A stretch of DNA of 64,000 nucleotides from Thermoanaerobaculia bacterium (GTDB lineage Bacteria; Acidobacteriota; Thermoanaerobaculia; Multivoradales; JAHEKO01), in NCBI GenBank assembly GCA_041574955.1, contig JBFGNS010000004.1, positions 6,707 through 70,706 of the forward strand. The letters run 5' to 3'. The number at the start of each line of letters is the position of its first letter. Within the stretch, counting starts at the first letter, position 1. This document shows positions 3,215 to 63,869 of the stretch, piece after piece. The notes beneath the pieces are model-generated. The model ran no database searches, had not been told where the DNA came from, and saw only the letters and a program-made list of their open reading frames with translations. Made by a program: the position numbers and the translations under genes.

Positions 3215-3304
3215 TGGCGGAGAGGGTGGGATTCGAACCCACGGACCGCTTGCACGGTCAACGGTTTTCGAGACCGCCCCGTTCGACCACTCCGGCACCT
3301 CTCC
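3215..3304 (-). tRNA. tRNA-Ser (anticodon CGA), CCA encoded
   Basis: Minus-strand sequence GGAGAGGTGCCGGAGTGGTCGAACGGGGCGGTCTCGAAAACCGTTGACCGTGCAAGCGGTCCGTGGGTTCGAATCCCACCCTCTCCGCCA. It has a 7-bp acceptor stem, anticodon loop CT-CGA-AA, a long variable arm (class II) and a GTTCGAATC T-loop. Confidence 0.9.
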
Positions 3305-3345
3305 GTGAGGACGAGCGCCACCGCGGCGGTGCCCGTCCTGCGATC

Positions 3346-3438
<93 letters not shown>

Positions 3439-4034: not shown

Positions 4035-4167
4035 GGCAGCGGCGGGCGAAGGGTTCGGGTCCTGTGCACCGAACGGCTCCGAACCTCGTCAGGCCCGGAA
4101 GGGAGCAGCGATAAGGTGCCCGGCTCGGGTGCCGCAGATCAGCCGGAACCCTTCGTCGGCCGCTGCC
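4035..4167 (+). ncRNA. ffs: Signal recognition particle RNA (small/4.5S type)
   Basis: Contains the conserved domain IV motif GTCAGGCCCGGAAGGGAGCAGC (4088-4109; compare E. coli GUCAGGUCCGGAAGGAAGCAGC, with the GGAA tetraloop). A long closing helix is present: ggcagcggc...gggttc at the 5' end pairs with gaaccc...gccgctgcc at the 3' end. The location just upstream of dnaX is a common synteny. Confidence 0.8.
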
Positions 4168-8223: not shown

Positions 8224-9213
8224 GTGGCCGTGAGCGTCGCCGACCAGCTCGGGGCCATCGCCCTGTTCGCCCACTTCGAGGCCGACGATCTGGGCAGCCT
8301 GGCCGCCGCCACCAGCGCCCACCGGGCGGCGGCGGGCGGCCGGCTCGACGAGCTGGCCGACAGCGCCTTCCTGGTCGAGCGCGGCAGCGTCGAGCTGAGC
8401 CGCACGACGCCGTACGGACCGTTCGTGTTGCGCCGCGTCGGCGACGGCGCGCTGTTCGGGGAGGCGACGCTGCTCGGGTTCCAGGCCGGCGCCGACATGC
8501 TGGCCGCCGAAGCCGAGACCAGCGCCCTGGTGTTCGACCGTGACACCGTCGCCGCCCTTTCCGAGGCCAGCCAGCGGTTCCACCTCAGCCTGTTGTGGTC
8601 GCTGTGGAAGAGCCTGTCCGGCAAGCTGCGGCGAGCCAACGACCGGCTCACCGAGTTCTTCAACCCGGCGCTCGACGCGCCGCAGGGGGAGCCGCCGTCA
8701 CGCCCCGCGCCGGCGGCCGGCTTCCGCGTCGACATCGCCGCCAAGCGCGGCCTGTTCCAGGAGCAGCGGCTGTCGGGCCTCGAGATCAACTTCCTCACCA
8801 CGCTGTCGCGCGAAGAGCGCTACGCCGACGGCGAGGCCGTCTTTCACGAGGGCGAGCCGGCCGAGGCGATGTACGTGGTGCTCGACGGCAAGGTCCGGAT
8901 CAGCAAGCACATTCCCGGCGTCGGCGAGGAGGCGCTGTCGTTTCTCGAGCGCGGCGCCTACTTCGGCGAGATGGCGCTGATCGACAGCCAGGCGCGCTCG
9001 GCCAGCGCGGTGGCGCACGGCGGCGAGGCGGTGGTGCTGGCGATTCCGCGCGACGTGCTGGGCGGGCTGCTCGACATCCGGAAGACCTCCTCGCCTCGGC
9101 TGCTGCGCCTGCTGTGCGAGATGCTCTGCCGGCGGCTGCGCGAGCTCGACGACAAGCTGGTCGGCTGGCACATCCTGTCCGCCGGCTCGCCGCCGCACGC
9201 GGCGGCCGACTAG
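8224..9213 (+). CDS. Protein with two cyclic nucleotide-binding (cNMP/Crp-type) domains
   Basis: 329 aa. Two copies of the cNMP-binding pattern (LFGEATLL...; EAMYVVLDGKVRISK...YFGEMALIDSQARSASAVA). GTG start immediately after the upstream stop. Confidence 0.75.
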   Translation: MAVSVADQLGAIALFAHFEADDLGSLAAATSAHRAAAGGRLDELADSAFLVERGSVELSRTTPYGPFVLRRVGDGALFGEATLLGFQAGADMLAAEAETSALVFDRDTVAALSEASQRFHLSLLWSLWKSLSGKLRRANDRLTEFFNPALDAPQGEPPSRPAPAAGFRVDIAAKRGLFQEQRLSGLEINFLTTLSREERYADGEAVFHEGEPAEAMYVVLDGKVRISKHIPGVGEEALSFLERGAYFGEMALIDSQARSASAVAHGGEAVVLAIPRDVLGGLLDIRKTSSPRLLRLLCEMLCRRLRELDDKLVGWHILSAGSPPHAAAD

Positions 9214-9389
9214 CCTGGCCTACTCGCCGCCGCTCGGCGAGCGGCCGCAGGGGCCTGAAGATCCGCGACTTGCCGCCCGCGGGCACCGCAGGCGTACTCC
9301 AGACTACGTCGAGGATGCCCGGACAAGCGGAAGTCGCGCAGCTTCGGGTGCATCCGGACGCGCGACGGCGGCGCGGTGAGAAGGTCGGG

Positions 9390-10463
9390 CTAGCGGTCTT
9401 CGTCCGGCCGCGCGCGGCGGGCGGCGGCGAGCGCCTTGCGCGCCAGCCCGGCGAGCGGCATCTCGCTCAGCGCGGTGTCCCCGAACCAGCCCGCCTCGGC
9501 CGACTCGGCCACCCCTCCGGCGGCGCGCAGCTCGGCCCGCCACAGCTCGACCTCGAGCCGGCGGTTGGTGATGGCGTGGCGCAGGGTGGCGAGCGGCGCG
9601 GCCAGCCGCCAGCGGCCGCCGTAGCGCGCGGCCAGCGCGCGCTCGGCCTCGGCCGGCTCGCCGGCCGCCACCCACGGCAGCTCCCAGAGCCCGGCCAGCA
9701 GCTGCTCCGTCGGTGGCCGGCGGACCAGCAGCAGCCGGCCGCCCTGCCGCGCCAAGGCCGCGATCCGCCGCTCGCGCCGGGGCTCCGGCGACCGCCGCCG
9801 GGACGGTAGCCGCTGCTCCAGCCCGGCGGCAAGCGCGCCGCAGCCCGCGGCCAGCGGACAGCTCGGGCAGCGCGGACGGCGCGGCAGACAGACGGTCGCA
9901 CCGAGCTCCATGAGCGCCTGGTTGACGTCGCCCGGGCGTCCTTCCGCGCCGCCCACCAGCTCGGCGGCGTAGGTCTCGATCCGGCGGGCCACCGCCGCCC
10001 GGTGCACCTCGCGCCGCTCACCCAGCAGGCGGGTGACGACCCGCACGACGTTGCCGTCGACCGCCGGCACCGCCTCGCCGAAGGCGATGCTGGCCACCGC
10101 CGCGGCGGTGTAGCGCCCCACGCCGGGCAGGCGAAGCCACTCGGCGGCGGTGTGCGGCCAGCCGGCGCCGGCGGCCACCAGCGTCCGGGCGGCGGCGTGC
10201 AGCCGGCGGGCGCGCTGGTAGTAGCCGAGCCCCGACCAGGCGGCGAGCACCTGCTCCTCGTCGGCCGCCGCCAGGCTCTCGACGTCCGGAAAGCGCTCCA
10301 GGAAGCGCTGGTAGTAGGGGCCCGCGGTCTCGGCGCGCGTCTGCTGCAGCATCACCTCCGAAACCCACACCGCGTAGGGATCGGCGCTCCGCCGCCAGGG
10401 CAGCTGGCGCGCGTTGGCGTCGTACCAGGCGAGCAGCCGCGCGGCAGCGGCGGTGCGGCTCAA
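9390..10463 (-). CDS. mutY: A/G-specific adenine DNA glycosylase MutY (start placed at TTG 10463; the 673-aa ORF in the track is an upstream read-through)
   Basis: LLAWYDANARQLPWRRSADPYAVWVSEVMLQQTRAETAGPYYQRFLERFP (HhH-GPD), GLGYYQRARRLH, the 4Fe-4S loop CLPRRPRCPSCPLAAGC and a C-terminal NUDIX-like domain. A 357-aa product fits the family. Confidence 0.85.
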   Translation of the reverse strand: MSRTAAAARLLAWYDANARQLPWRRSADPYAVWVSEVMLQQTRAETAGPYYQRFLERFPDVESLAAADEEQVLAAWSGLGYYQRARRLHAAARTLVAAGAGWPHTAAEWLRLPGVGRYTAAAVASIAFGEAVPAVDGNVVRVVTRLLGERREVHRAAVARRIETYAAELVGGAEGRPGDVNQALMELGATVCLPRRPRCPSCPLAAGCGALAAGLEQRLPSRRRSPEPRRERRIAALARQGGRLLLVRRPPTEQLLAGLWELPWVAAGEPAEAERALAARYGGRWRLAAPLATLRHAITNRRLEVELWRAELRAAGGVAESAEAGWFGDTALSEMPLAGLARKALAAARRARPDEDR

Positions 10464-21648: not shown

Positions 21649-21706
21649 GCGGGTGGTCTGCTGCCTGCGCGGCGCCGGGGTGGGCGCGCGACGCGTCTCA
21701 TGTGCT

Positions 21707-21899
21707 GGCCCGGCCGGCTGGGAGTCGCGGGGGAGGGGGTCCCAGGGTACCGGCTCGCGCCGGTCGGGTTTTCTCGGGGGTGCGCTCGCCCGCACTCGGC
21801 TGGCGCGCGGCATCGGCGTCGGACTCCCGCCGGCGTTGCGCCGCGCTGGCCGAGAGCTACCCTGGAACCCCCTCCCCCGCAACTCCGACGCCGGCCTCC
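21707..21899 (+). repeat. Family-1 structured intergenic repeat, copy A (193 nt)
   Basis: Alignable end to end with 45597-45804, 47361-47553 and 62303-62495. Long self-complementary arms (gcgggggagggggtcccagggta / taccctggaaccccctcccccgc) enclose a conserved core (ccggctcgcgc...gcactcggctggcgcgcgg...ggcgtcggactcc...gcgctggccgagagc). Confidence 0.85.
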
Positions 21900-21938: not shown

Positions 21939-22547
21939 ATGTCTGAGCGAGAGCAGCGGCCCGCGGTGGCCGGGGAGGAACGGTCCGGGCCGGCGGCGCC
22001 GGCGCCGGGGCTGCTGTACAGGGTGGCCTGGGTGTTCTACCTGGTGCTGGCGATCGGCGGGGTGGTGTGGATCGGGGTGCGGCGGGGGACGATCCCGCTG
22101 GAGCTGTTCGTGGATCCGGCGGGCTGGTGGATCGACCTGGGGCTGGGCCTCGGGGCCGGCGGCCTGCTGCTCGGGCTGTGGCAGCTGGGGAGGCGGCTGC
22201 TGCCGTCGGCGAGGGCGCTCGAGGGCAAGCTGGGAGAGCTGCTGGCCGGGGTCGACGGCGCCGAGGTGGTGGCGCTGGCGCTGGTGTCGGGCTTCGCCGA
22301 GGAGCTGTTCTTTCGCGGCGCCATGCAGGCGGCCTGGGGCTGGCCGTTGGCCACCGCCCTGTTCGCCCTGCTGCACGTCGGCCCCGGGCGGGCCTACCGC
22401 TCCTGGACCGTCTTCGCCGCCGCCGCCGGCCTGCTGCTGGCCGGCCTGATGGAGTGGCGCGGCAACCTGCTCGCCCCGGTGGTGGCCCACGCCCTGGTCA
22501 ACGCGGTCAACCTGGGGCGGCTGGCGAGGAGAGGCGTGCGGGCTTGA
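21939..22547 (+). CDS. CPBP-family intramembrane glutamic endopeptidase (CAAX protease-like); start re-set to ATG 21939
   Basis: MSEREQRP... followed by several TM helices. CPBP motifs are present: GFAEELFFRG, FALLHV and APVVAHALVNAVN. The 79 aa upstream in the track ORF lie over the family-1 repeat and are rejected. Confidence 0.75.
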   Translation: MSEREQRPAVAGEERSGPAAPAPGLLYRVAWVFYLVLAIGGVVWIGVRRGTIPLELFVDPAGWWIDLGLGLGAGGLLLGLWQLGRRLLPSARALEGKLGELLAGVDGAEVVALALVSGFAEELFFRGAMQAAWGWPLATALFALLHVGPGRAYRSWTVFAAAAGLLLAGLMEWRGNLLAPVVAHALVNAVNLGRLARRGVRA

Positions 22548-22704: not shown

Positions 22705-22858
22705 CCATCGCCGGAGGCTGCGCCCGCCGGTTGGAGCCCGGGGCGGAGCGACATCACCCTCGCCTTTGGAGCGCAGCTCCGGGCTCCGGCCGGCCAGCGC
22801 AGCCGGCCCGAAGCTCCGGAGCCCCCAAGCCCCCAAGCCCCCAAGCCCTCGGGCCCTC
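22705..22858 (+). repeat. Family-2 hairpin repeat, copy a, with three tandem GCCCCCAA octamers
   Basis: Aligns with 62580-62721. The 16-bp stem gccggttggagcccgg (22726-22741) / ccgggctccggccggc (22779-22794) closes a 37-nt loop containing GGAGCGACATCACCCTCG. GCCCCCAA x3 lies at 22821-22844. Confidence 0.8.
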
Positions 22859-38606: not shown

Positions 38607-39713
38607 ATGGCCCGGCCGGACCTGCTGGTGGTCGGTGGCGGCCCGGCCGGGCTGGCGACGGCGATCGCGGCCCGCTGCGCCGGGCTGAGCGCGACCGTGG
38701 TCGACCGCTCGCGGCCGCCGATCGACAAGGCGTGCGGCGAGGGAATCATGCCGGCCGGCGTCGGGCGGCTGGCCGAGCTCGGCGTGGAGCTCGACCCCGT
38801 CGCATGCCGGCCGTTCCGCGGCATCCGCTACCGCGATGGAGAGCTGTCGGCCGCCGCCGACTTTCCGGGCCGGCCGGGGCTGGGAGTCCGCCGCACCACC
38901 CTCCACCAGGCGCTGGCCAAGCGGGCGGCGGCGGCGGGTGTCGAGCTGGTGTGGGGGCGGGTTGTGCGGGCGCTCGAGGGCGGCACGGCCGTCACCGACG
39001 ACGGGCCGCTCGGGGGCCGCTGGATCGTCGGCGCCGACGGGCTGACCTCGCGAGTGCGGCGGTGGGCGGGGCTCGAGCGGCCGCTGCCGCGGCGGTTCCG
39101 CTTCGGCGTCAGGCGGCACTACCAGGTCGCGCCGTGGAGCCACCGGGTGGAGGTCTGGTGGGCGGACGGCTGCGAGGCGTACGTCACGCCGGTGTCGGCC
39201 GGTGAGGTCGGCGTGGCCCTGCTGTGGAGCGGCGGCAAGGCCGACTTCGACCGCCTGCTGGGCCGTTTCCCGGGCCTCGCCGAGCGGCTGGCGGGGGCGG
39301 CCAGCAGCTCGCGCGACCAGGGCGCCGGCCCGCTCCACCGCGAGCCGCGGGCGGTGTGGCGCGGCCGGGTGCTGCTGGCCGGCGACGCCGCCGGCTACTA
39401 CGACGCCATCACCGGCGAGGGGCTGGACCTCGCCTTCCACCAGGCGTTCGCCCTGGTCGACGCCGTGCGCCATGACGACCCGCGCCGCTACGCGCTCTTC
39501 TGCCGGCGAATGTACCGGCTGCCGTTCGCGCTCATCCGGCTGCTGCTCGTCGCCGAGCACCGGCCGTGGCTGCGCCGCCGGCTGATCCGCACGCTGGCCG
39601 AGGACCCGCGCCTGTTCGCCCGGCTGCTGGCCATCCACGCCCGTGAGCGGCCGCCGCGCAGCCTCGGACTGGCCGGCGTCTGGCGGCTGGCGCGCGGCCT
39701 GGCGCGGGCCTAG
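38607..39713 (+). CDS. FAD-dependent monooxygenase/oxidoreductase (geranylgeranyl reductase/aromatic hydroxylase family)
   Basis: 368 aa. DLLVVGGGPAGLATAIAAR (FAD fold), DKACGEG and LLAGDAAGYYDAITGEG. Starts 1 nt after the ligase stop. Confidence 0.8.
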   Translation: MARPDLLVVGGGPAGLATAIAARCAGLSATVVDRSRPPIDKACGEGIMPAGVGRLAELGVELDPVACRPFRGIRYRDGELSAAADFPGRPGLGVRRTTLHQALAKRAAAAGVELVWGRVVRALEGGTAVTDDGPLGGRWIVGADGLTSRVRRWAGLERPLPRRFRFGVRRHYQVAPWSHRVEVWWADGCEAYVTPVSAGEVGVALLWSGGKADFDRLLGRFPGLAERLAGAASSSRDQGAGPLHREPRAVWRGRVLLAGDAAGYYDAITGEGLDLAFHQAFALVDAVRHDDPRRYALFCRRMYRLPFALIRLLLVAEHRPWLRRRLIRTLAEDPRLFARLLAIHARERPPRSLGLAGVWRLARGLARA

Positions 39714-39847
39714 CCCGAGCTTCTGACCGAGCCGCCGCTGCGCGTCCGGATGCAGCTGGACCTTCACGACGTCTCTTGTTCGGTCTTCAGGCACCCGCGG
39801 CCGCTCGCCCAGCGGCTCGATGAGAAGGTCAGGCTAGCCGGCGGCCG

Positions 39848-45596: not shown

Positions 45597-45804
45597 GGCC
45601 CGGCCGGCTTGGAGTCGGGGGGAGAGGGTCGGCCCAATAGGGACTACATCTCCGGCTCGCGCCAGTCGGACTCTGCTTAGGGGGTGCGCTCGCCCGCACT
45701 CGGCTGGCGCGCGGGCGTCGGCGTCTGACTCCCATCGGCGTTGCGTTGCGCTGGCCGAGAGCTACCTGTCGACCCCTCTCCCCTCGACTCTGACGCCGAC
45801 ACCC
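45597..45804 (+). repeat. Family-1 structured intergenic repeat, copy B (208 nt, most diverged)
   Basis: Same core as the other copies (ccggctcgcgcc...gcgctcgcccgcactcggctggcgcgcgg...gcgctggccgagagc). The stem sequence is different but still complementary (gtcggggggagagggtcg / cgacccctctcccctcgac). About 15 extra nt sit at the tip of the 5' arm. Confidence 0.8.
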
Positions 45805-47078: not shown

Positions 47079-47220
47079 GGGAGTGCCGGTCATTCTAGGT
47101 CCGCGGTATCGACGGAGCGAGACAGGGATCCAAGGGGCGCTTCAACACAAAGCGAACGTTCGTTCTTTTGCGTTGATTGTCGGTGCGGTTTCACCCTTCG
47201 GAGGGACACCGGAGCCTGGG

Positions 47221-47286
47221 CCACCCCCGGGAAGGTGCGCCTGCCGGGGGCCCGGGGCGGAGCGACCTCCATCGCCCCTTTTGGAC
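47221..47286 (+). repeat. Family-2 repeat, truncated copy c1 (5' half only)
   Basis: ccacccccgggaaggtgcgcctgccgggggcccggggcggagcgacctccatcgccccttttggac aligns with the first half of 62580-62650. The 3' stem arm is missing and the sequence runs into a family-1 fragment. Confidence 0.6.
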
Positions 47287-47301
47287 ACCGGGATGCGTGC
47301 T

Positions 47302-47343
47302 GGCCCGGCCGGCTCGGAGTCGACGGGGACAAGGTCCCAGGTA
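47302..47343 (+). repeat. Extra, isolated 5' arm of the family-1 repeat
   Basis: ggcccggccggctcggagtcgacggggacaaggtcccaggta duplicates the first ~42 nt of family 1 with 3 substitutions and one missing g, 18 nt upstream of full copy C. Confidence 0.7.
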
Positions 47344-47360
47344 GCGGCGGGTCGGCGGTG

Positions 47361-47553
47361 GGCCCGGCCGGCTCGGAGTCGAGGGGGACAGGGTCCCAGG
47401 GTACCGGCTCGCGCGCAGTCGGACTTTCGAGCGGGGCGCTCGCCTGCACTCGGCTGGCGCGCGGCATCGGCGTCGGACTCCACCCGGCGTTGCGCTGCGC
47501 TGGCCGAGAGCTACCCTGGGACCCTGTCCCCCTCGCCTCTGACGCCGGCCTCC
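47361..47553 (+). repeat. Family-1 structured intergenic repeat, copy C (193 nt)
   Basis: Near-identical to copy D (62303-62495), with a perfect 24-bp stem cgagggggacagggtcccagggta / taccctgggaccctgtccccctcg. Confidence 0.85.
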
Positions 47554-47567
47554 GCGGGGCGAGGGGG

Positions 47568-47607
47568 GCCTCGAGGGCTCGGGGGCTCGAGGGCTCGAGG
47601 CTTGAGG
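47568..47607. repeat. Tandem octamer array (5 units, GGCTCGAG-like)
   Basis: gcctcgag ggctcggg ggctcgag ggctcgag gcttgagg. Its reverse complement resembles the GCCCCCAA / GCCCTTGA units that follow family-2 copies a and d. Confidence 0.7.
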
Positions 47608-47626
47608 CCTGGCGCTGCGTAAGCCG

Positions 47627-47682
47627 GCGGGGGCCCGGTCGGAGCGACATCACCCTCGTGTGGCCAAGCGACCGGGCCCCGC
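47627..47682 (+). repeat. Family-2 hairpin repeat, copy c2
   Basis: Stem gcgggggcccggtc (47627-47640) / gaccgggccccgc (47670-47682) closes a loop containing GGAGCGACATCACCCTCG. Confidence 0.7.
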
Positions 47683-47856
47683 GCCCAACGCGCTGGCCGG
47701 GGGCTCGGGGGGCTGCTGCTCGTCCTCGACGGGAGACAGGGCCGGGTACCGGAGGGTGCAGGGCGGTCGGGGCACTCGCGCCGAAAGCCCTTTGGCTACG
47801 GGGGACTGTGGCGCTGGCACGGATCCTGAAGCCCGGGGCCGGCGAGGAGGCCCGAG

Positions 47857-48570
47857 ATGATGCGACGGAATATGACTTTGGCACTGGCCGGCGGCGCGCT
47901 GGCGCTGGGGCTCATGGTGGCCGCGCCGGCCGAGGCGGGGCACGCCGGCTGGTCGTTCGGCGCCGGCTTCCGGGTCGGCGGCTTTGATTTCCAGATCGGC
48001 TTCCGCGACGGCGGGCGGTACGGTCCGGGCCCCTACTTCCACACCCGCGGCGCCCTGAGCTACCCTGGCCACCGCTGCGGCAGCTACTGCCTGCGCAGCG
48101 GCCGCGACTTCTACCACCACTACACCTGCCCGCTGGTCGGCCTCCACTTCAGCCGCTTCGGATACTCGTCGGGCTACTACCTCGATGCGTACCCGCCGCC
48201 GGGTTTCTTCTTCCGCGGTTACTACGGCGGCTACCACGACCGCCACTACCGGCACCGTGCGCCCAGCCGCCGGCACGGCTACTATCTCCACCGGGACCGC
48301 CACCGCGACCGCTGGTGGGACCACCGCGGCGACCGCTGGGACCGTCGTGACCAGCGGCGCGACCGCCGCCGCGACTGGCGGCGGGACCGGCGGCACGACC
48401 GGCGCGACGAACGGCGTGACTGGCGGCGCGACCGGCGGGATGACCGCCGCGACTGGCGCGAGGACCGGCGTCACGATCGGCGCCGTCACCGCCTGCGCGA
48501 TCGCGACGACCGCCGCCGCGACGACGACCGGCCGCGGGCCCGCCGCCGCGGCCGCCGGGGTCCCGGCTAG
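47857..48570 (+). CDS. Secreted hypothetical protein with Arg/Asp/Trp/His-rich repeat tail
   Basis: 237 aa. GAGGAGG lies 6 nt upstream of the ATG. Clear signal peptide MMRRNMTLALAGGALALGLMVAAPAEA. A Gly/Tyr/Phe-rich middle region with three Cys, then about 90 aa of DRRxDWRRDRR-type repeats. Confidence 0.6.
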   Translation: MMRRNMTLALAGGALALGLMVAAPAEAGHAGWSFGAGFRVGGFDFQIGFRDGGRYGPGPYFHTRGALSYPGHRCGSYCLRSGRDFYHHYTCPLVGLHFSRFGYSSGYYLDAYPPPGFFFRGYYGGYHDRHYRHRAPSRRHGYYLHRDRHRDRWWDHRGDRWDRRDQRRDRRRDWRRDRRHDRRDERRDWRRDRRDDRRDWREDRRHDRRRHRLRDRDDRRRDDDRPRARRRGRRGPG

Positions 48571-48587
48571 GGGCCCGGTCCCGGCTC

Positions 48588-49547
<960 letters not shown>

Positions 49548-49567
49548 CGCGGAATCCGGACGGCCGG

Positions 49568-50152
49568 TCAGGCCAGCAGCTTGGCGAGCGTGGCGGCCAG
49601 CTTCGCTCCCAGCTCTTGGACCGCCGCCTGCTGCTTGGCGTCCACCAGCGAGCCGTCGTCGGCGAACGCCTGATGGGCACGGCTCACCGCGCGCTGATCG
49701 GGCAGCACCAGGACGCCGAGGTTGGAGAGGATGGCGCGCACGTGCACCAGGCCACGCAGGCCGCCCAGCGAGCCGGGCGAGGCGCTCATCAGCACGGCCG
49801 CCTTGCCGCGGAACGCGACCAGCGGCGGCTCGTCGGGCTCGCTGCGGCGCGACGCCCAGTCGATGGCGTTCTTGAGCACGCCGGTGATCGAGGAGTTGTA
49901 CTCGGGCGAGGCGATCAGGAAGCCGTCGTGCTCGCGCATCAGCCGCTTGAGCTCGGCAGCGTTGGCCGGCATGCCCTCGGCGCGCTCGAGATCCTGATCG
50001 TAGAGCGGCATCGGCAGGTCGGCCAGATCGATGCGGGTGACCTCGGCGCCCGCCTTCCGCGCGCCGGCGACCGCCACCGCCAGCAGGCGCTTGTTGTACG
50101 AGCCGCGGCGCGTGCTGCCGGCGAAGGCGAGGATCCTGGGCTGGTCGGACAT
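49568..50152 (-). CDS. NADPH-dependent FMN reductase
   Basis: 194 aa. ILAFAGSTRRGSYNKRLL and SPEYNSSITGVLKNAIDWASR are flavodoxin-like FMN reductase motifs. Confidence 0.8.
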   Translation of the reverse strand: MSDQPRILAFAGSTRRGSYNKRLLAVAVAGARKAGAEVTRIDLADLPMPLYDQDLERAEGMPANAAELKRLMREHDGFLIASPEYNSSITGVLKNAIDWASRRSEPDEPPLVAFRGKAAVLMSASPGSLGGLRGLVHVRAILSNLGVLVLPDQRAVSRAHQAFADDGSLVDAKQQAAVQELGAKLAATLAKLLA

Positions 50153-50244
50153 CGGGAGCTGGGCGCGTCGCGGCCGCGGGCTGTCTGACGATCGGGCCGG
50201 GCCGGAGGGGTGGCGGCGTGGCCGGGCTGCCAGAGTCTACACGC

Positions 50245-50266
50245 GCCGCGACGAGACGGTCGCGGC
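50245..50266 (-). terminator. Terminator-like hairpin after the GGDEF-EAL gene (no U tract)
   Basis: gccgcgac (50245-50252) / gtcgcggc (50259-50266), an 8-bp stem with a 6-nt loop, about 50 nt downstream of the stop at 50319. Confidence 0.3.
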
Positions 50267-50318
50267 CCCGGGCCCGGCGCTCTCGGCGGCGCGCCGCGCC
50301 GGTCGCAGGCGGGCGCCG

Positions 50319-59875: not shown

Positions 59876-62224
59876 ATGCCCGACGAGCGAGACCCGCTGG
59901 CGGCGGTGCGGCAGGACCGTCCGCTGCTGCCGTTCCTGCCGCTGATCTGGGTGGCGTGGGCGGACGGCGAGCTGGCCGCCGAGGAGGCGGCGGCGATCCG
60001 CGAGCGCATCACCGCCAGCCGGCTCGACGACGACTGCCGCCGCCGGCTCGGCCAGTGGCTGGATCCGGCCAGCCCGCCGCCGCCGCGCCAGCTGCAGGCG
60101 ATCCTGCGCACCGTGCGGCGCGCCGCCGCCGGCCTGGGAGACTCGGCGCGCGGCTCGCTGGCCGAGCTGGGCAGCGAGCTCACCCGGCAGGTGGCCGGCG
60201 AGGCCGAGCTGTCGGCGGCCGAGCGCGAGGCGCTGGTGGCGCTCGAGGAGGCGCTGGGAGTGGCCGGCGGCGAGCTGTCGCGCGAGCTGGTGAGCGAGCG
60301 GAGGCCGGCGGCGCCGGAGGCCGTGCCGGCGCCCGGCTTCGAGCCGGCGGCGCTCACCAGCTGGGCCGAAGGCGCGAGCCACGGCATGCGCCAGCGTGTC
60401 CGGGCGGTGCTGGCGCGGCCGGAGTTCCGCTACCGCTACGACCTCCAACGCGACGCCTACCGCGACCAGGTGCTGGCGTGGTGCCGGATCCTGGCCGACG
60501 AGGGCCTGGGTGCGCTGTCGATGCCGCCCGAGCACGGCGGCGAGGGCGACCTGGCGGGGTTCATCACCGCCTTCGAGACGCTGGCGATGTTCGACCAGAG
60601 CCTGCTGGTCAAGTTCGGCGTCCAGTTCGGGCTTTTCGGCGGCAGCATCGTCGGGCTCGGTACACATCGCCACCACGAGCGTTACCTGCGCGCCGTCGGA
60701 CGGCTCGAGCTGCCGGGCTGTTTCGCCATGTCCGAGACCGGCCACGGCTCGAACGTCGCGGACCTGGCCACCGTGGCGCGCTTCGACGCCGAGCGCGACG
60801 AGTTCGAGATCCACACTCCCGAACCGCTCGATCGCAAGGACTGGATCGGCGGCGCGGCGCGACACGCGCGGCTGGCGACGGTGTTCGCCCAGCTCGAGAT
60901 CGACGGCGAGCGCTACGGCGTGCACGCCCTGCTGGTGCCGATCCGCGACGCCGAGGGCCGGCCGCTGCCGGGTGTGGCGATCGAGGACTGTGGCGACAAG
61001 GAAGGGCTCAACGGCGTCGACAACGGGCGGCTGAGCTTCGACCGGGTGCGGGTGCCGCGCGACAACCTGCTCGACCGCTTCGGCCAGGTGGACGCCGACG
61101 GCACCTATTCGAGCCCCATAGCCAGCCCAGGCCGGCGGTTCTTCACCATGCTGGGGACCCTGGTGGGCGGCCGCATCAGCGTCGCCGGCGCGGCGCTGAC
61201 GGCGGCCCGCTCCGGCCTCGCGATCGCCATCCGCTACGGCGAGCGGCGGCGCCAGTTCGGTCCCGCCGGGCGCCCCGAGGTGCCCCTCATGGAGTACCGC
61301 ACGCACCAGAGGCGACTGCTGCCGCGGCTGGCCGCCTGCTACGCCGTCGGCTTCGCCCAACGGCACCTGGTGGAGCGGTTCGTGGCGCGTACCGAAGCCG
61401 ACGCGCGCGAGGTAGAGGGGCTGGCAGCCGGGCTCAAGGCCTACAGCTCGTGGCACACCGTGGCGACGCTCCAGACCTGCCGCGAGTGCTGCGGCGGCCA
61501 GGGCTACCTGCGGGTCAACCGCATCGCCCAGCTGATGGACGACACCGACGTCTACACCACCTTCGAGGGCGACAACACGGTGCTGCTGCAGCTGGTGGCC
61601 AAGGGGCTGCTGACCCGTTACCGCCACCAGTTCGAGGACCTGAGGCTGGGCGGTCTGGTGCGCTACCTGGCGTCGCGCGCGATGGCGGCGCTGGCCGACA
61701 TCAACCCGGTCTTCCCGCGCCGCACGGACGAGGCGCATCTGCGCAACCCCGAGTTCCATCTGCACGCCGTGCGCTACCGCGAGGAACGGCTCCTGGTGTC
61801 GGCGGCGCGGCGGCTCAAGGCGCTGATCGACGACGGCCGCGACTCGTTCGAGGCGCTCAACCTGTGCCAGGACCACCTGGTGACCCTGGCGCTGGCCTAC
61901 GTCGAGCGGGTGGTGGTCGAGCAGTTCCAGCAGGCGGTGGCCGGGCTCGAGGACGAGGCGCTGGCGCCGGTGATGACCCGGCTCTACGACCTGTGGGCGC
62001 TGTGGCGGATCGAGAGCGACCGGGGGTGGTTTCTCGAGAACGGCTATCTCGAGGGCTCGAAGGCCAAGGCCATCCGGTCGCTGGTCAACCGGCTGCTCGC
62101 CGAGGTGCGCCCCGACGCCCTCGGCCTGGTCGAGGCGTTCGGCATCCCCGACAACTGCCTGGCGGCCCCGATCGCCTTCGACCTGGCGCCGGACCTGGCC
62201 GGGGGCGGGTCGGAAACGGCCTGA
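59876..62224 (+). CDS. Acyl-CoA oxidase/dehydrogenase-family flavoenzyme with an N-terminal extension of about 170 aa
   Basis: 782 aa. FAMSETGHGSNV, GDKEGLNGVDNGRLSF, CCGGQGYL and TFEGDNTVL are acyl-CoA oxidase-type motifs. Confidence 0.85.
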   Translation: MPDERDPLAAVRQDRPLLPFLPLIWVAWADGELAAEEAAAIRERITASRLDDDCRRRLGQWLDPASPPPPRQLQAILRTVRRAAAGLGDSARGSLAELGSELTRQVAGEAELSAAEREALVALEEALGVAGGELSRELVSERRPAAPEAVPAPGFEPAALTSWAEGASHGMRQRVRAVLARPEFRYRYDLQRDAYRDQVLAWCRILADEGLGALSMPPEHGGEGDLAGFITAFETLAMFDQSLLVKFGVQFGLFGGSIVGLGTHRHHERYLRAVGRLELPGCFAMSETGHGSNVADLATVARFDAERDEFEIHTPEPLDRKDWIGGAARHARLATVFAQLEIDGERYGVHALLVPIRDAEGRPLPGVAIEDCGDKEGLNGVDNGRLSFDRVRVPRDNLLDRFGQVDADGTYSSPIASPGRRFFTMLGTLVGGRISVAGAALTAARSGLAIAIRYGERRRQFGPAGRPEVPLMEYRTHQRRLLPRLAACYAVGFAQRHLVERFVARTEADAREVEGLAAGLKAYSSWHTVATLQTCRECCGGQGYLRVNRIAQLMDDTDVYTTFEGDNTVLLQLVAKGLLTRYRHQFEDLRLGGLVRYLASRAMAALADINPVFPRRTDEAHLRNPEFHLHAVRYREERLLVSAARRLKALIDDGRDSFEALNLCQDHLVTLALAYVERVVVEQFQQAVAGLEDEALAPVMTRLYDLWALWRIESDRGWFLENGYLEGSKAKAIRSLVNRLLAEVRPDALGLVEAFGIPDNCLAAPIAFDLAPDLAGGGSETA

Positions 62225-62248
62225 AGAGTGTGTACTGGCGGTGCCGGT

Positions 62249-62291
62249 GTGCCCCGACCTGGGGAAGTGGCGGGAGAGGGTCGTGGGGCAC
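62249..62291 (+). repeat. GC-rich hairpin immediately upstream of family-1 copy D
   Basis: gtgccccgac (62249-62258) pairs with gtcgtggggcac (62280-62291), with a 2-nt bulge. It is followed by caccgggatgc, which also precedes the family-1 fragment at 47288-47298. Confidence 0.4.
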
Positions 62292-62302
62292 CGGGATGCA
62301 TG

Positions 62303-62495
62303 GGCCCGGCCGGCTCGGAGTCGAGGGGGACAGGGTCCCAGGGTACCGGCTCGCGCGCGGTCGGACTTTCGGGCGGGGCGCTCGCCTGCACTCGGCTGGC
62401 GCGCGGCATGGGCGTCGGACTCCACCCGGCGTTGCGCTGCGCTGGCCGAGAGCTACCCTGGGACCCTGTCCCCCTCGCCTCTGACGCCGGCCTCC
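62303..62495 (+). repeat. Family-1 structured intergenic repeat, copy D (193 nt)
   Basis: Perfect 24-bp stem 62322-62345 / 62454-62477, extended with one mismatch and one bulge to ggccggc / gccggcc. 108-nt conserved core. Confidence 0.85.
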
Positions 62496-62579
62496 GGTGA
62501 GAGCAGCGGGAATCGGCCGCCGGCTCCGCGCATCACCGGTCGCCAGTCAGCGCTCCTCGAAGCGAGAACAGCGCGGTAG

Positions 62580-62721
62580 CCATCCCCGGAGGGTGTGCCC
62601 GCCGGCTCGGGGCCCGGGGCGGAGCGACATCACCCTCGCCTTTGGAGCGTAGCGCCGGGCCCCGAGCCGGCCGCGCGCCCGGCCCGAAGCCGCAAACCCA
62701 GCCCCCAAGCCCTTGAGCCCC
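62580..62721 (+). repeat. Family-2 hairpin repeat, copy d
   Basis: Perfect 17-bp stem gccggctcggggcccgg (62601-62617) / ccgggccccgagccggc (62655-62671), with a 37-nt loop containing GGAGCGACATCACCCTCG. Followed by GCCCCCAA/GCCCTTGA units (62701-62721). Confidence 0.8.
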
Positions 62722-62741
62722 GTGAGATATGCTCCCCGCCG

Positions 62742-63869
62742 GTGCTCCCGCTACAGCGGTCGTTGTTGAAGGTGGCAGCCCTCGGGGCCTCGATGCTGGC
62801 GTCCGGCCTGGGAGGGCTGTCCTGGGCTCAGGAAGAAGGTCCGGTGGAGCCGCTCGAGGGGCTCGATCCGGTGCTGCTGGTCGAGGGCCGGGAGGTCCAG
62901 GGCGAGCCCGGGATTACGGTGGCGCGCGGGCGGTTCCGCTACTCGTTTGCCGGTGAGGAGACCCGGCGCCGGTTCGAGGCCGATCCCGAGCGGTACGAGA
63001 TCCGCTACGGCGGCGCCTGCGCGCGCATGCGCTCGGCCGACGGCAACCCCGACCTGTTCGCGGTGCACGACGGCGGGATCTACGTTTTCGGCAGCGCCGA
63101 GTGCTGGCGTGCCTTCCGCGCCGCGCCGACCGACTACCTGGACCGGCCGCCGGCGCCGCTGGGCGACGACCCGGCAGCCTCCGAGCGCGGCCGGCAGCTG
63201 ATCGAGCGGGCGGTCGCCGCGGTCGGCGGCGCGGCGGTGGTGGACGCCGTACGGGTGCTGCTCGAGAGCGGCACGATACCGCCGCCGGGCGGTAGCGAGG
63301 CCGAGCCGATCCCGGTCACCCTGAGCTTCGAGCTCGCCGGTCGGGCGCGTCAGGACGCGGTGCGCTCCTTCGGCCCGCTGTCGATGATCCTGAACGCCGA
63401 CGGTCTGTTCCAGGTGACCCGCTTCGGCGTCGAGCGGCGGCTCGACTACCACCGGCTGTTGTTCGAGCGCGAGCTGGCGCGCCACCCGCTGGCGCTGCTC
63501 GCCGCGCGCACCGGTGCCGGCTTCCGCGCCGTCGCACTGCCGCCGCCCGCCGGCGGGGGAACGGTCGAGCGCGTGGCCGTCGACACCGGCGGCCAGCGGC
63601 TGGTGCTGGCGCTCGACGCCGGCAGCGGTCTGCCGGCCAGCCTGGCGTTCGACGGCCAGGGACCCGACTGGCGGGTGGGCGAGGTGGAGGTCGTCTACTC
63701 GGACTACCGCGCGGTCGACGGCCTGCTGCTGCCGTTCCGCCGCGAGGGAAGGTACGGCGGCGGTCCGTTCCCGGCGCGGAGCTTCGTGGTCGAGTCGGCG
63801 CGGATCGACCCCGAGCTGCCGCCCGACCTGTTCGCACCGCCGCAGCCGGAGACGGGCGACAGCGGGTGA
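62742..63869 (+). CDS. Secreted hypothetical protein with N-terminal YHS-like domain (start uncertain; GTG 62742 chosen)
   Basis: Signal-like LLKVAALGASMLASGLGGLSWA. GLDPVLLVEGREVQGEPGITVARGRFRYSFAGEETRRRFEADPERY resembles YHS/TRASH-type domains. The 49 aa upstream in the track ORF lie over the family-2 repeat and are rejected. Confidence 0.55.
   Translation: MLPLQRSLLKVAALGASMLASGLGGLSWAQEEGPVEPLEGLDPVLLVEGREVQGEPGITVARGRFRYSFAGEETRRRFEADPERYEIRYGGACARMRSADGNPDLFAVHDGGIYVFGSAECWRAFRAAPTDYLDRPPAPLGDDPAASERGRQLIERAVAAVGGAAVVDAVRVLLESGTIPPPGGSEAEPIPVTLSFELAGRARQDAVRSFGPLSMILNADGLFQVTRFGVERRLDYHRLLFERELARHPLALLAARTGAGFRAVALPPPAGGGTVERVAVDTGGQRLVLALDAGSGLPASLAFDGQGPDWRVGEVEVVYSDYRAVDGLLLPFRREGRYGGGPFPARSFVVESARIDPELPPDLFAPPQPETGDSG

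Follow-up and report, generated by a model that had tools for sequence, protein, structure and literature searches.

The locus examined here raises the question of what kind of element occupies the space immediately downstream of gyrA in a 64,000-nt stretch of genome from a Thermoanaerobaculia bacterium (GCA_041574955.1, contig JBFGNS010000004.1, positions 6,707 to 70,706; this whole stretch is hereafter the window). The element, designated Family-1, is an inverted-repeat sequence that recurs elsewhere in the window, and the initial annotation had likened it to no named RNA family, repetitive extragenic palindrome (REP) or MITE (miniature transposable element with inverted repeats). That description holds in so far as no named family accounts for the element; as a class of element, Family-1 does fit the MITE/REP type. 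It is a previously undescribed family of an already known element kind, outside every named family, and it is mobile or formerly mobile. The behaviour seen is that of a multi-copy sequence that is absent from the equivalent gene junctions of relatives, lies at another locus in a sister species and has left truncated ends. We consider it probable that Family-1 belongs to the MITE/REPIN class, as a palindromic repeat that is neither coding nor autonomous and was inserted into intergenic DNA.

The four full copies previously reported were recovered with the same coordinates and the same + orientation, together with an additional, unlisted 5'-arm fragment. Each full copy consists of a 5' arm of 43 nt (55 nt in copy B), a core of 108 nt (111 nt in B) and a 3' arm of 42 nt. 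Copy A (21707-21899, 193 nt) comprises a 5' arm at 21707-21749, a core at 21750-21857 and a 3' arm at 21858-21899, with arms of type GCGGGGGAGGGGG. Copy B (45597-45804, 208 nt; arms at 45597-45651 and 45763-45804, core at 45652-45762) bears type GGGGAGAGGG in both arms, has extra bases in its 5' arm and is the most diverged of the window copies. Copy C (47361-47553, 193 nt; arms at 47361-47403 and 47512-47553, core at 47404-47511) has arms of type GAGGGGGACAGGG and is preceded by the solo 5'-arm fragment (47297-47345, arm type GACGGGGACAAGG), which starts 59 nt upstream of it. Copy D (62303-62495, 193 nt; arms at 62303-62345 and 62454-62495, core at 62346-62453) shares identical arms with copy C, and the cores of the two are 97% identical. 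Family-1 thus reaches a density of 4.5 copies of 193-208 nt per 64 kb, and its 21-nt 5' terminus (GGCCCGGCCGGCTCGGAGTCG) occurs five times in the window with at most one mismatch, against 0.07 occurrences expected by chance.

The arms (42-55 nt) are 84-86% complementary in copies A, C and D, and include a perfect 24-bp segment in C and D; in D, the pairing of 62322-62345 with 62454-62477 and its extension to GGCCGGC/GCCGGCC were reproduced as first described. These outer termini (GGCCGGC...GCCGGCC) are the best-kept part of the arms in all copies. Both ends are conserved yet unlike each other (5' GGC-TC versus 3' GGCGTC), and they are flanked by the unpaired tails GTGCT and TCCGGTG. On the left side, the tails read ATGTGCT, TGGTGCT, GCGTGCT, GCGGTG and TGCATG, the first being the semi-conserved tail of copy A (21700-21706). 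The hexamer CACCGG, found to the left of D (62273-62278) and of the solo arm at C (47286-47291), is complementary to the CCGGTG that lies 3' of D (62494-62499) and of several other copies. The palindrome of the C/D subfamily, and possibly its true boundary, may reach some 25 nt beyond this on the left, with an asymmetric internal loop in between.

Evidence for insertion comes from the gene junctions at which copies A and B reside. The window has a G+C content of 73.3%, and its GyrA shares no more than 85% identity with the GyrA of any species-representative genome; the 80 best gyrA loci all stem from uncultured Acidobacteriota, mostly labelled Thermoanaerobaculia. Gene calling based on third-position G+C content (GC3) and Pfam upheld the intergenic placement of all copies. 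Copy A starts 58 nt 3' of the gyrA stop and ends 39 nt 5' of gene X (21939-22547), which encodes a CPBP/Rce1-like membrane protein. The gap between gyrA and gene X is 290 nt in the window, 193 of them being copy A. In most relatives, too, gyrA is followed by gene X, and in 37 genomes the aligned part of its homologue begins at a median of 12 nt (range -56 to +241) past the gyrA stop. Copy B, in turn, starts 55 nt after a radical SAM gene that is convergent with a DUF6116 gene, and the gap between these genes, 91 nt in two relatives (L204 and L205), is 333 nt in the window, including the 208 nt of the copy. Because their gene junctions are tight in relatives, copies A and B are read as insertions, and insertion polymorphism is hence found between species, with both junctions empty in relatives. 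Copy D starts 78 nt past the stop of an acyl-CoA oxidase gene, and gene order beyond this gene differs in relatives, so that no junction comparison applies to it. Copy C is flanked by divergent genes, with fpg (-, start 47093) on one side and a + gene (47857-48570) on the other. A large gap between gyrA and gene X in another genome (L028) was considered as a Family-1-like occupancy and discarded, since it contains no structured element.

The distribution of Family-1 is narrow. Two metagenome-assembled genomes (MAGs) of the same species (GCA_041608635.1 and GCA_041609615.1), with DNA 99.4-99.7% identical to the window, contain Family-1 copies. Beyond them, the only relative is one diverged full-length copy (L203:2016-2214; 124 bits with the Family-1 covariance model) in a sister species with about 85% nucleotide identity in orthologous genes. 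This copy has its own mutually complementary arms, and its locus is unoccupied by Family-1 in the window, so that the element sits at different loci in the two species. Around it (L203:1885-2350) lie reiterated end pieces: three 5'-end pieces upstream (CCGGTCGGCT..GGAG), with a period of about 44 nt, and three or four 3'-end pieces downstream (GCCGCCGACCTCCGG), with a period of about 49 nt. The array resembles multiple end-binding sites or repeated abortive events, and its pieces echo the solo 5' arm beside copy C. Some 66 kb more of the sister assembly, made up of L005 and L207 from the same 929-kb contig and of L208 from a different contig of that sample, yielded no further copies.

Searches over wider collections agree with this picture. 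At the gathering threshold, Rfam matched only the signal recognition particle (SRP) RNA and two tRNAs in the whole window, and a scan of copy D at E<=10 returned two noise matches of 11-16 bits; with these searches, the earlier statement that Family-1 is no named RNA family is borne out. An exact 25-mer pattern from the core had no match in 185,579 species-representative genomes and the JGI metagenomes, and the 120 loci retrieved by a 19-mer metagenome scan were dismissed by nhmmer and inspection as chance matches in coding DNA. No Family-1 match was found in plasmids or phages (blastn) or in viral contigs (scans followed by covariance-model checks), and nhmmer found nothing in 1.4 Mb around gyrA of 80 relatives. 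Six-frame translation of the element, used as a concatenated query, had no homologue among 5.8 billion proteins, which shows that no ORF over any copy has been annotated among them by a gene caller. The Family-1 element has no coding potential, and the family is confined to one narrow Thermoanaerobaculia lineage.

The feature that had suggested a structural role, namely the mirrored changes of the two arms, was assessed on the four window copies and the L203 copy after alignment to a covariance model, a procedure that leans towards the modelled structure and in which 91.8% of cells pair. Changes on both sides were found in 20 of 76 pairs (12 of the 20 in the 25-pair outer helix), as opposed to 6.8 +/- 2.0 in shuffles, none of 500 of which reached 20, and to 0-7 in slid controls; the mirrored changes thus exceed chance. 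The three differences between the 5' arms of A and D (C/A, G/C and G/A) are each mirrored in the 3' arm, and copy B indeed carries a third self-complementary arm type. After the shared GGAG, the 5' arm segment and the reverse complement of its 3' counterpart read TCGCGGGGGAGGGGGTCCCAGGGTA and TTGCGGGGGAGGGGGTTCCAGGGTA in copy A, TCGAGGGGGACAGGGTCCCAGGGTA and GCGAGGGGGACAGGGTCCCAGGGTA in copies C and D, and CCGAGAAGTGGGGGGCCCCGGGTA and CCGAGAGGTGGGGGGTCTCAGGTA in the L203 copy.

The mirrored changes fall mid-arm, within the perfectly paired segment of 24-27 bp, and in every copy the terminal ~15 bp differ in the same way between left and right (by a G bulge in the 3' arm and by fixed mismatches), an asymmetry that simple gene conversion between arms would erase. 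From the alignment, the two ends appear to be functionally distinct, and the mid-arm seems constrained only to pair. Between copies, identity is 70-91% in the arms and 70-89% in the cores; arms and core diverge equally, and therefore the core is not specially conserved within Family-1. As for the inner stem proposed within the core (ctcggctggcgc/gcgctggccgag, with two G-U pairs), it exists, but it is invariant among the window copies and offers no covariation evidence. Mirrored arms had also been put forward as an argument against a mobile element, and this argument fails: the same pattern is documented for REPINs (PMC3116915) and bcr1 (PMC3184786), and the present copies A and B are themselves inserted sequences. 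By itself, covariation between the arms of a palindromic repeat is no evidence for an RNA gene.

Among known systems, one of the closest parallels is found in REPINs, REP doublets that form hairpins and are mobilised by RAYT Y1 transposases (Bertels & Rainey 2011, PMC3116915). REPIN hairpins commonly show compensatory changes on both sides; their ends are asymmetric, the 5' tail is unpaired, solo remnants occur and target duplications are lacking (PMC3116915). Like them, Family-1 is an extragenic non-coding repeat whose inverted halves would form one long hairpin in single-stranded DNA or RNA, and it shares with them the compensatory changes, the asymmetric conserved ends, the unpaired 5' tail and the lack of target duplication, as well as solo halves as remnants, ordered or tandem higher-order arrangements and a location downstream of genes. 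On the other hand, Family-1 is larger (~193 nt versus ~70-110 nt for REPINs), has a 108-nt spacer as conserved as its arms, and is linked to no RAYT gene in the 64 kb read.

A second parallel involves TIRYTs, IS200-like Y1 transposases flanked by long inverted repeats, one sharply defined group of which occurs in Acidobacteria (Di Nocera et al. 2013, PMC3733652) and whose inverted repeats also make up dispersed families, some of them sharing the motif GGGGWSAS (PMC3733652). The host of Family-1 belongs to the same phylum, and the TIRYT repeats, too, are long and inverted, have no relation to REPs and make up dispersed families of moderate abundance, in which dimers are frequent. Both arms agree with GGGGWSAS in copies C and D (GGGGACAG) and in B (GGGGAGAG), a match that is only a lead. 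The published families come from Acidobacteriia, whereas Family-1 comes from Thermoanaerobaculia, and no TIRYT gene flanked by Family-1 arms was seen within the 64-kb window.

The ~155-bp bcr1 repeat of the Bacillus cereus group is mobile, transcribed and subject to base-pair compensatory changes (Klevan 2007, reviewed in PMC3184786). It resembles Family-1 as a small mobile intergenic repeat in which compensatory changes keep a double-stranded structure; it differs from it in having 5-bp direct repeats at each insertion, which are not seen in Family-1, and two independent stem-loops instead of a single closing helix of ~40 bp, and the two sequences are unrelated. ERIC/IRU, Correia (NEMIS), RUP and further bacterial MITEs that are palindromic over their whole length are co-transcribed and form robust hairpins able to stabilise or destabilise mRNA. 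They too are imperfect palindromes of 100-170 bp beside genes (for background, PMC3733652), but they have defined target duplications (for instance TA for Correia) or a known partner insertion sequence (IS), and no sequence similarity to Family-1.

How Family-1 moves, or moved, can be outlined in conditional terms. The responsible enzyme would be encoded outside the window and act in trans, and a tentative proposal is that a single-stranded hairpin substrate is handled by an HUH/Y1-type transposase (RAYT- or TIRYT-like, as proposed for REPINs). Such an enzyme is more likely than a classical cut-and-paste one of the DDE type because there is no target duplication, the conserved termini are unlike each other and the copies are uniformly oriented. 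In that case the arms would be held to pairing in the single-stranded intermediate, in a transcript or in both. Judging from their position, most copies are probably co-transcribed with the upstream genes, since they start 23-78 nt past the stop codon of a co-oriented gene. The transcripts would then carry the hairpin (-115 to -147 kcal/mol as RNA) either at the 3' end of an mRNA or within an operon such as gyrB-gyrA-gene X; by analogy with effects demonstrated for other bacterial MITEs, it could confer stability on the transcripts, lead to their cleavage or insulate them.

Several observations weigh against the assignment of Family-1 to mobile palindromic repeats. Across three same-species assemblies, copies B, C and D are present wherever a contig covers the site, and no presence/absence polymorphism within the species was seen. 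In nucleotide-level alignments of occupied site B with the empty sites, the intergenic DNA of relatives is too diverged for boundaries to be drawn, and no clean empty site was found at nucleotide resolution. No target-site duplication, the hallmark of classical MITEs, is visible, even in the young copies C and D: around A, B, C and D, no direct repeat of at least 3 nt is present at any plausible boundary. As to the hallmark of REPs, the tag GTAG is lacking, as is CGTC, and the tail reads (A)TG(C)GTGCT instead. GGGGWSAS, an 8-mer so short that a G-rich arm could match it by chance, occurs neither in the arms of copy A (GGGGAGGG) nor in those of the L203 copy. Neither a transposase nor a full-length parent with these termini was found in the readable 64-kb window; the termini were absent as well from the other loci checked for a parent element, and no transposase turned up among the roughly 20 window open reading frames (ORFs) scanned against Pfam, mostly those flanking copies. 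Finally, the uniform orientation of the window occurrences (5/5, the four full copies and the solo arm) is weak evidence, at about 1 in 16.

Same-species contigs provide further information on the behaviour of the copies. Copy B is identical in contigs L002 and L206 (the latter from GCA_041608635.1), and the short-read contigs L002 and L001 end inside copies C and D, respectively, whereas the divergent copy B is read through. The solo arm at 47297-47345 is present in L002; L206 lacks the 59-nt solo arm and has a single full copy starting there, a difference that reflects either strain polymorphism or assembly collapse. Compared with window positions 47290-47800, L206:13300-13783 shows a C-type copy that continues on its right into other DNA with an msrA-like start. 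Such a junction implies more copies elsewhere, recombination between copies or an assembly collapse, each of which is an outcome typical of a dispersed repeat; put otherwise, it is either an assembly chimera at the repeat or a real rearrangement or additional copy.

Other kinds of element were considered and set aside. An integron attC site is at odds with ends of GGCCGGC/GCCGGCC instead of RYYYAAC/GTTRRRY, with copies 2-24 kb apart among housekeeping genes and with the absence of an integrase among the ORFs scanned. A retron non-coding RNA was dropped for want of a reverse transcriptase nearby, and a small ORF because the ATG in copy D is not conserved in C.

The best-surviving alternative, which we nevertheless regard as unlikely, is that Family-1 is a functional cis-acting + strand RNA module (a 3'-untranslated region (UTR) stabiliser, processing site, terminator or operon insulator), in which closing helix and core are selected for RNA structure and the copies are independent functional instances. 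The strength of the arm covariation would suit such a module, and so would the position of the element: copies A, B and D start 55-78 nt past the stops of co-oriented genes, and the range becomes 48-78 nt when it includes the end-piece array of the sister-species copy, the first piece of which lies ~48 nt past a co-oriented gene. Both B and the L203 copy sit between convergent genes, where a post-stop position is less informative, and copy C is the exception, being located in a divergent promoter region, outside any 3' UTR. Moreover, gyrA and gene X abut in relatives, with no apparent need for a conserved spacer.

Folding energies bear on the same alternative. As RNA, copy D has a minimum free energy of -147.1 kcal/mol (z = -9.1) on the + strand and of -131.2 kcal/mol (z = -7.3) on the - strand, with -146.1 kcal/mol (z = -6.8) for copy A and -115.9 kcal/mol (z = -3.4) for copy B; as single-stranded DNA, copy D reaches -80.6 kcal/mol (z = -8.9). 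For the window copies, + strand folds are 6-16 kcal/mol more stable than those of the - strand, and several G-U pairs occur on + in the core hairpin; from G-U pairing the initial annotation had argued for a + strand RNA. This argument does not stand. The same + over - shift appears in shuffles, since the + strand is richer in T than in A (16-21 T versus 5-12 A in the core), and the core alone is no more stable than dinucleotide shuffles (z from -0.1 to -1.6 on + and from -1.0 to +0.4 on -). Outer-stem mismatches that become wobbles on one strand only are balanced, with five on + (three in B, one in C/D and one in L203) and five on - (two in A and three in L203), and the L203 copy folds marginally better on the - strand. 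No terminator-like or promoter-like site was found in 62100-62900, around copy D, the sole copy scanned, and an intrinsic terminator is further discounted by the fact that the elements are followed by TCCGG or TCCTT, without a T-run. The divergence of the core at the rate of the arms, the limitation of the family to one narrow lineage and the lack of an Rfam match speak equally against an RNA module. GC skew is weakly positive throughout the window and genes lie mostly on +, and because the two biases agree window-wide, the directions of replication and transcription are inseparable as references for the shared orientation.

A further alternative is a classical MITE derived from an IS with a DDE transposase. 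The arms would act as long terminal inverted repeats bound by the transposase, and the mirrored differences would mark subfamilies co-evolved with different cognate transposases instead of selection for pairing. We judge this quite improbable, even though long inverted arms, small size, lack of coding sequence, multiple copies and intergenic insertion are all compatible with it. The outermost termini are the most conserved part of the arms, including those of the L203 copy (GGTCGGC...GCCGACC), and that copy has several reiterated end motifs per side. Reiterated end motifs are the pattern of transposons with multiple transposase-binding sites, such as Tn7 and Mu. Nonetheless, flanking direct repeats are lacking in 4/4 copies, including the near-identical C and D, in which duplications should have stayed intact in view of the identical arms and the 97% core identity. 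To account for three arm types within 64 kb, three cognate transposases would in addition be needed; the mirrored changes lie mid-segment, in the 24-27 bp that pair, while the terminal ~15 bp keep their left-right asymmetry; and the window ORFs scanned include no transposase.

A broader conjecture, which we hold to be a long shot, is that Family-1 is one branch of a class-wide set of hairpin elements in Thermoanaerobaculia recognised by shape and not by sequence; on that reading, short termini and a core would be conserved, and some 25 bp of mid-arm would be free to change as long as they pair. The hints come from other hairpins. Among distant genomes, the Family-1 covariance model also picked out long hairpins in L072 (49 bits), L057 (39 bits) and L034 (two), which start 23-45 nt past a co-oriented gene; the L072 and L057 elements are ~190 nt long, each with arms of different sequence, and lie ~45 nt past that gene. 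These matches are weakened by the reverse strands of true Family-1 copies, which score 26-40 bits on the same model, near the distant-genome values, and by core-only alignments whose z-scores against shuffles are about 0 for L072 (nil similarity), 4.0 for L057 (borderline) and 2.5 for the first L034 hairpin. Loop length is no help either: the 107-nt loop is not special because loops range from 31 to 151 nt among the ~20 hairpins in 1.55 Mb. The homology of the L072, L057 and L034 hairpins to Family-1 is thus unproven.

The remaining hints are an unrelated palindromic family with CTAGTGT...ACACTAG ends and a pair of elements in L034. The former is present in three other Thermoanaerobaculia genomes (L019:14866-15033, L028:1836-1987 and L063:12314-12481); its termini and core are conserved, with core alignments that beat 300/300 shuffles, and its arm segments are unrelated in sequence between members yet perfectly complementary. 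Its CTAG could be a target duplication, and the CTAGTGT motif also occurs in the alternative right flank of L206. The pair (L034:8642-8767, +, and 8838-8976, -; 126-139 nt) lies directly after gyrA in opposite orientations, with cores ~85-90% alike (z = 24) and wholly different arms, and represents a second independent occupation of the gyrA 3' junction. It is solidly observed that in these other palindromic families of the class ends and core are conserved and arms are unrelated in sequence yet complementary. If recognition by shape were true, such elements would be substrates of an uncharacterised structure-specific mobilisation system, or a 3'-end RNA module spreading in a transposon-like manner.

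That Family-1 is no element at all, and its copies are chance similarities or segmental-duplication remnants of intergenic DNA, is barely credible and was rejected: about 12 extra similar bases to the left of the element at the C and D loci (CACCGGGATGC) would agree with it, but the copy flanks are otherwise unrelated, and it is contradicted by the terminus count (5 versus 0.07 expected), the diverged full-length copy at another locus in another species, folding z-scores of -3.4 to -9.1 and the arm covariation.

The window holds other repeats in the vicinity of Family-1. A second family, with core GGCGGAGCGACATCACCCTCG, occurs on the + strand at 22724-22814, 47238-47281, 47630-47700 and 62600-62690, upstream of + genes, and in two cases ends near a Shine-Dalgarno-like AAGGAGG. 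Its distance downstream of Family-1 is 80-105 nt for copies C and D and ~825 nt for A, and a diverged member of this second family borders directly on the solo arm at 47297. The second family may serve as a leader or promoter module, or may be one component of a mosaic repeat. A third repeat of ~130-170 nt is found at 9225-9395 (+) and 39705-39835 (-), in inverted orientation, both intergenic and each bounded by CTAG, and the latter site is the window equivalent of the L203 locus that holds the sister-species copy of Family-1. The segment from fpg to a GGDEF/EAL gene (47094-50318) is a variable part of the chromosome: in the window it contains, besides copy C, genes for a low-complexity hypothetical protein, a PALP enzyme and an FMN reductase, and in three relatives (L203, L204 and L205) fpg is immediately followed by a CoA-ligase-type gene. 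Elsewhere, two tRNA genes and the small SRP RNA (3218-3438, -, and 4053-4151, +) form an ordinary housekeeping context, with a likely dnaX-type ORF, known from the gene call and not from Pfam, 3' of the SRP RNA.

Family-1 is a clean, previously undescribed repeat family from an Acidobacteria class that is known almost only from metagenomes. Repeats of this kind break short-read assemblies, as seen in the two MAG contigs that end inside copies, and copy A, lodged within a gyrB-gyrA-gene X unit that is tight elsewhere, could alter the expression of the operon. More generally, the combination of mirrored arms, asymmetric conserved ends and lack of target duplication makes Family-1 a useful test case for the question of whether hairpin-shaped repeats outside the Proteobacteria are moved as single strands by HUH-type enzymes.

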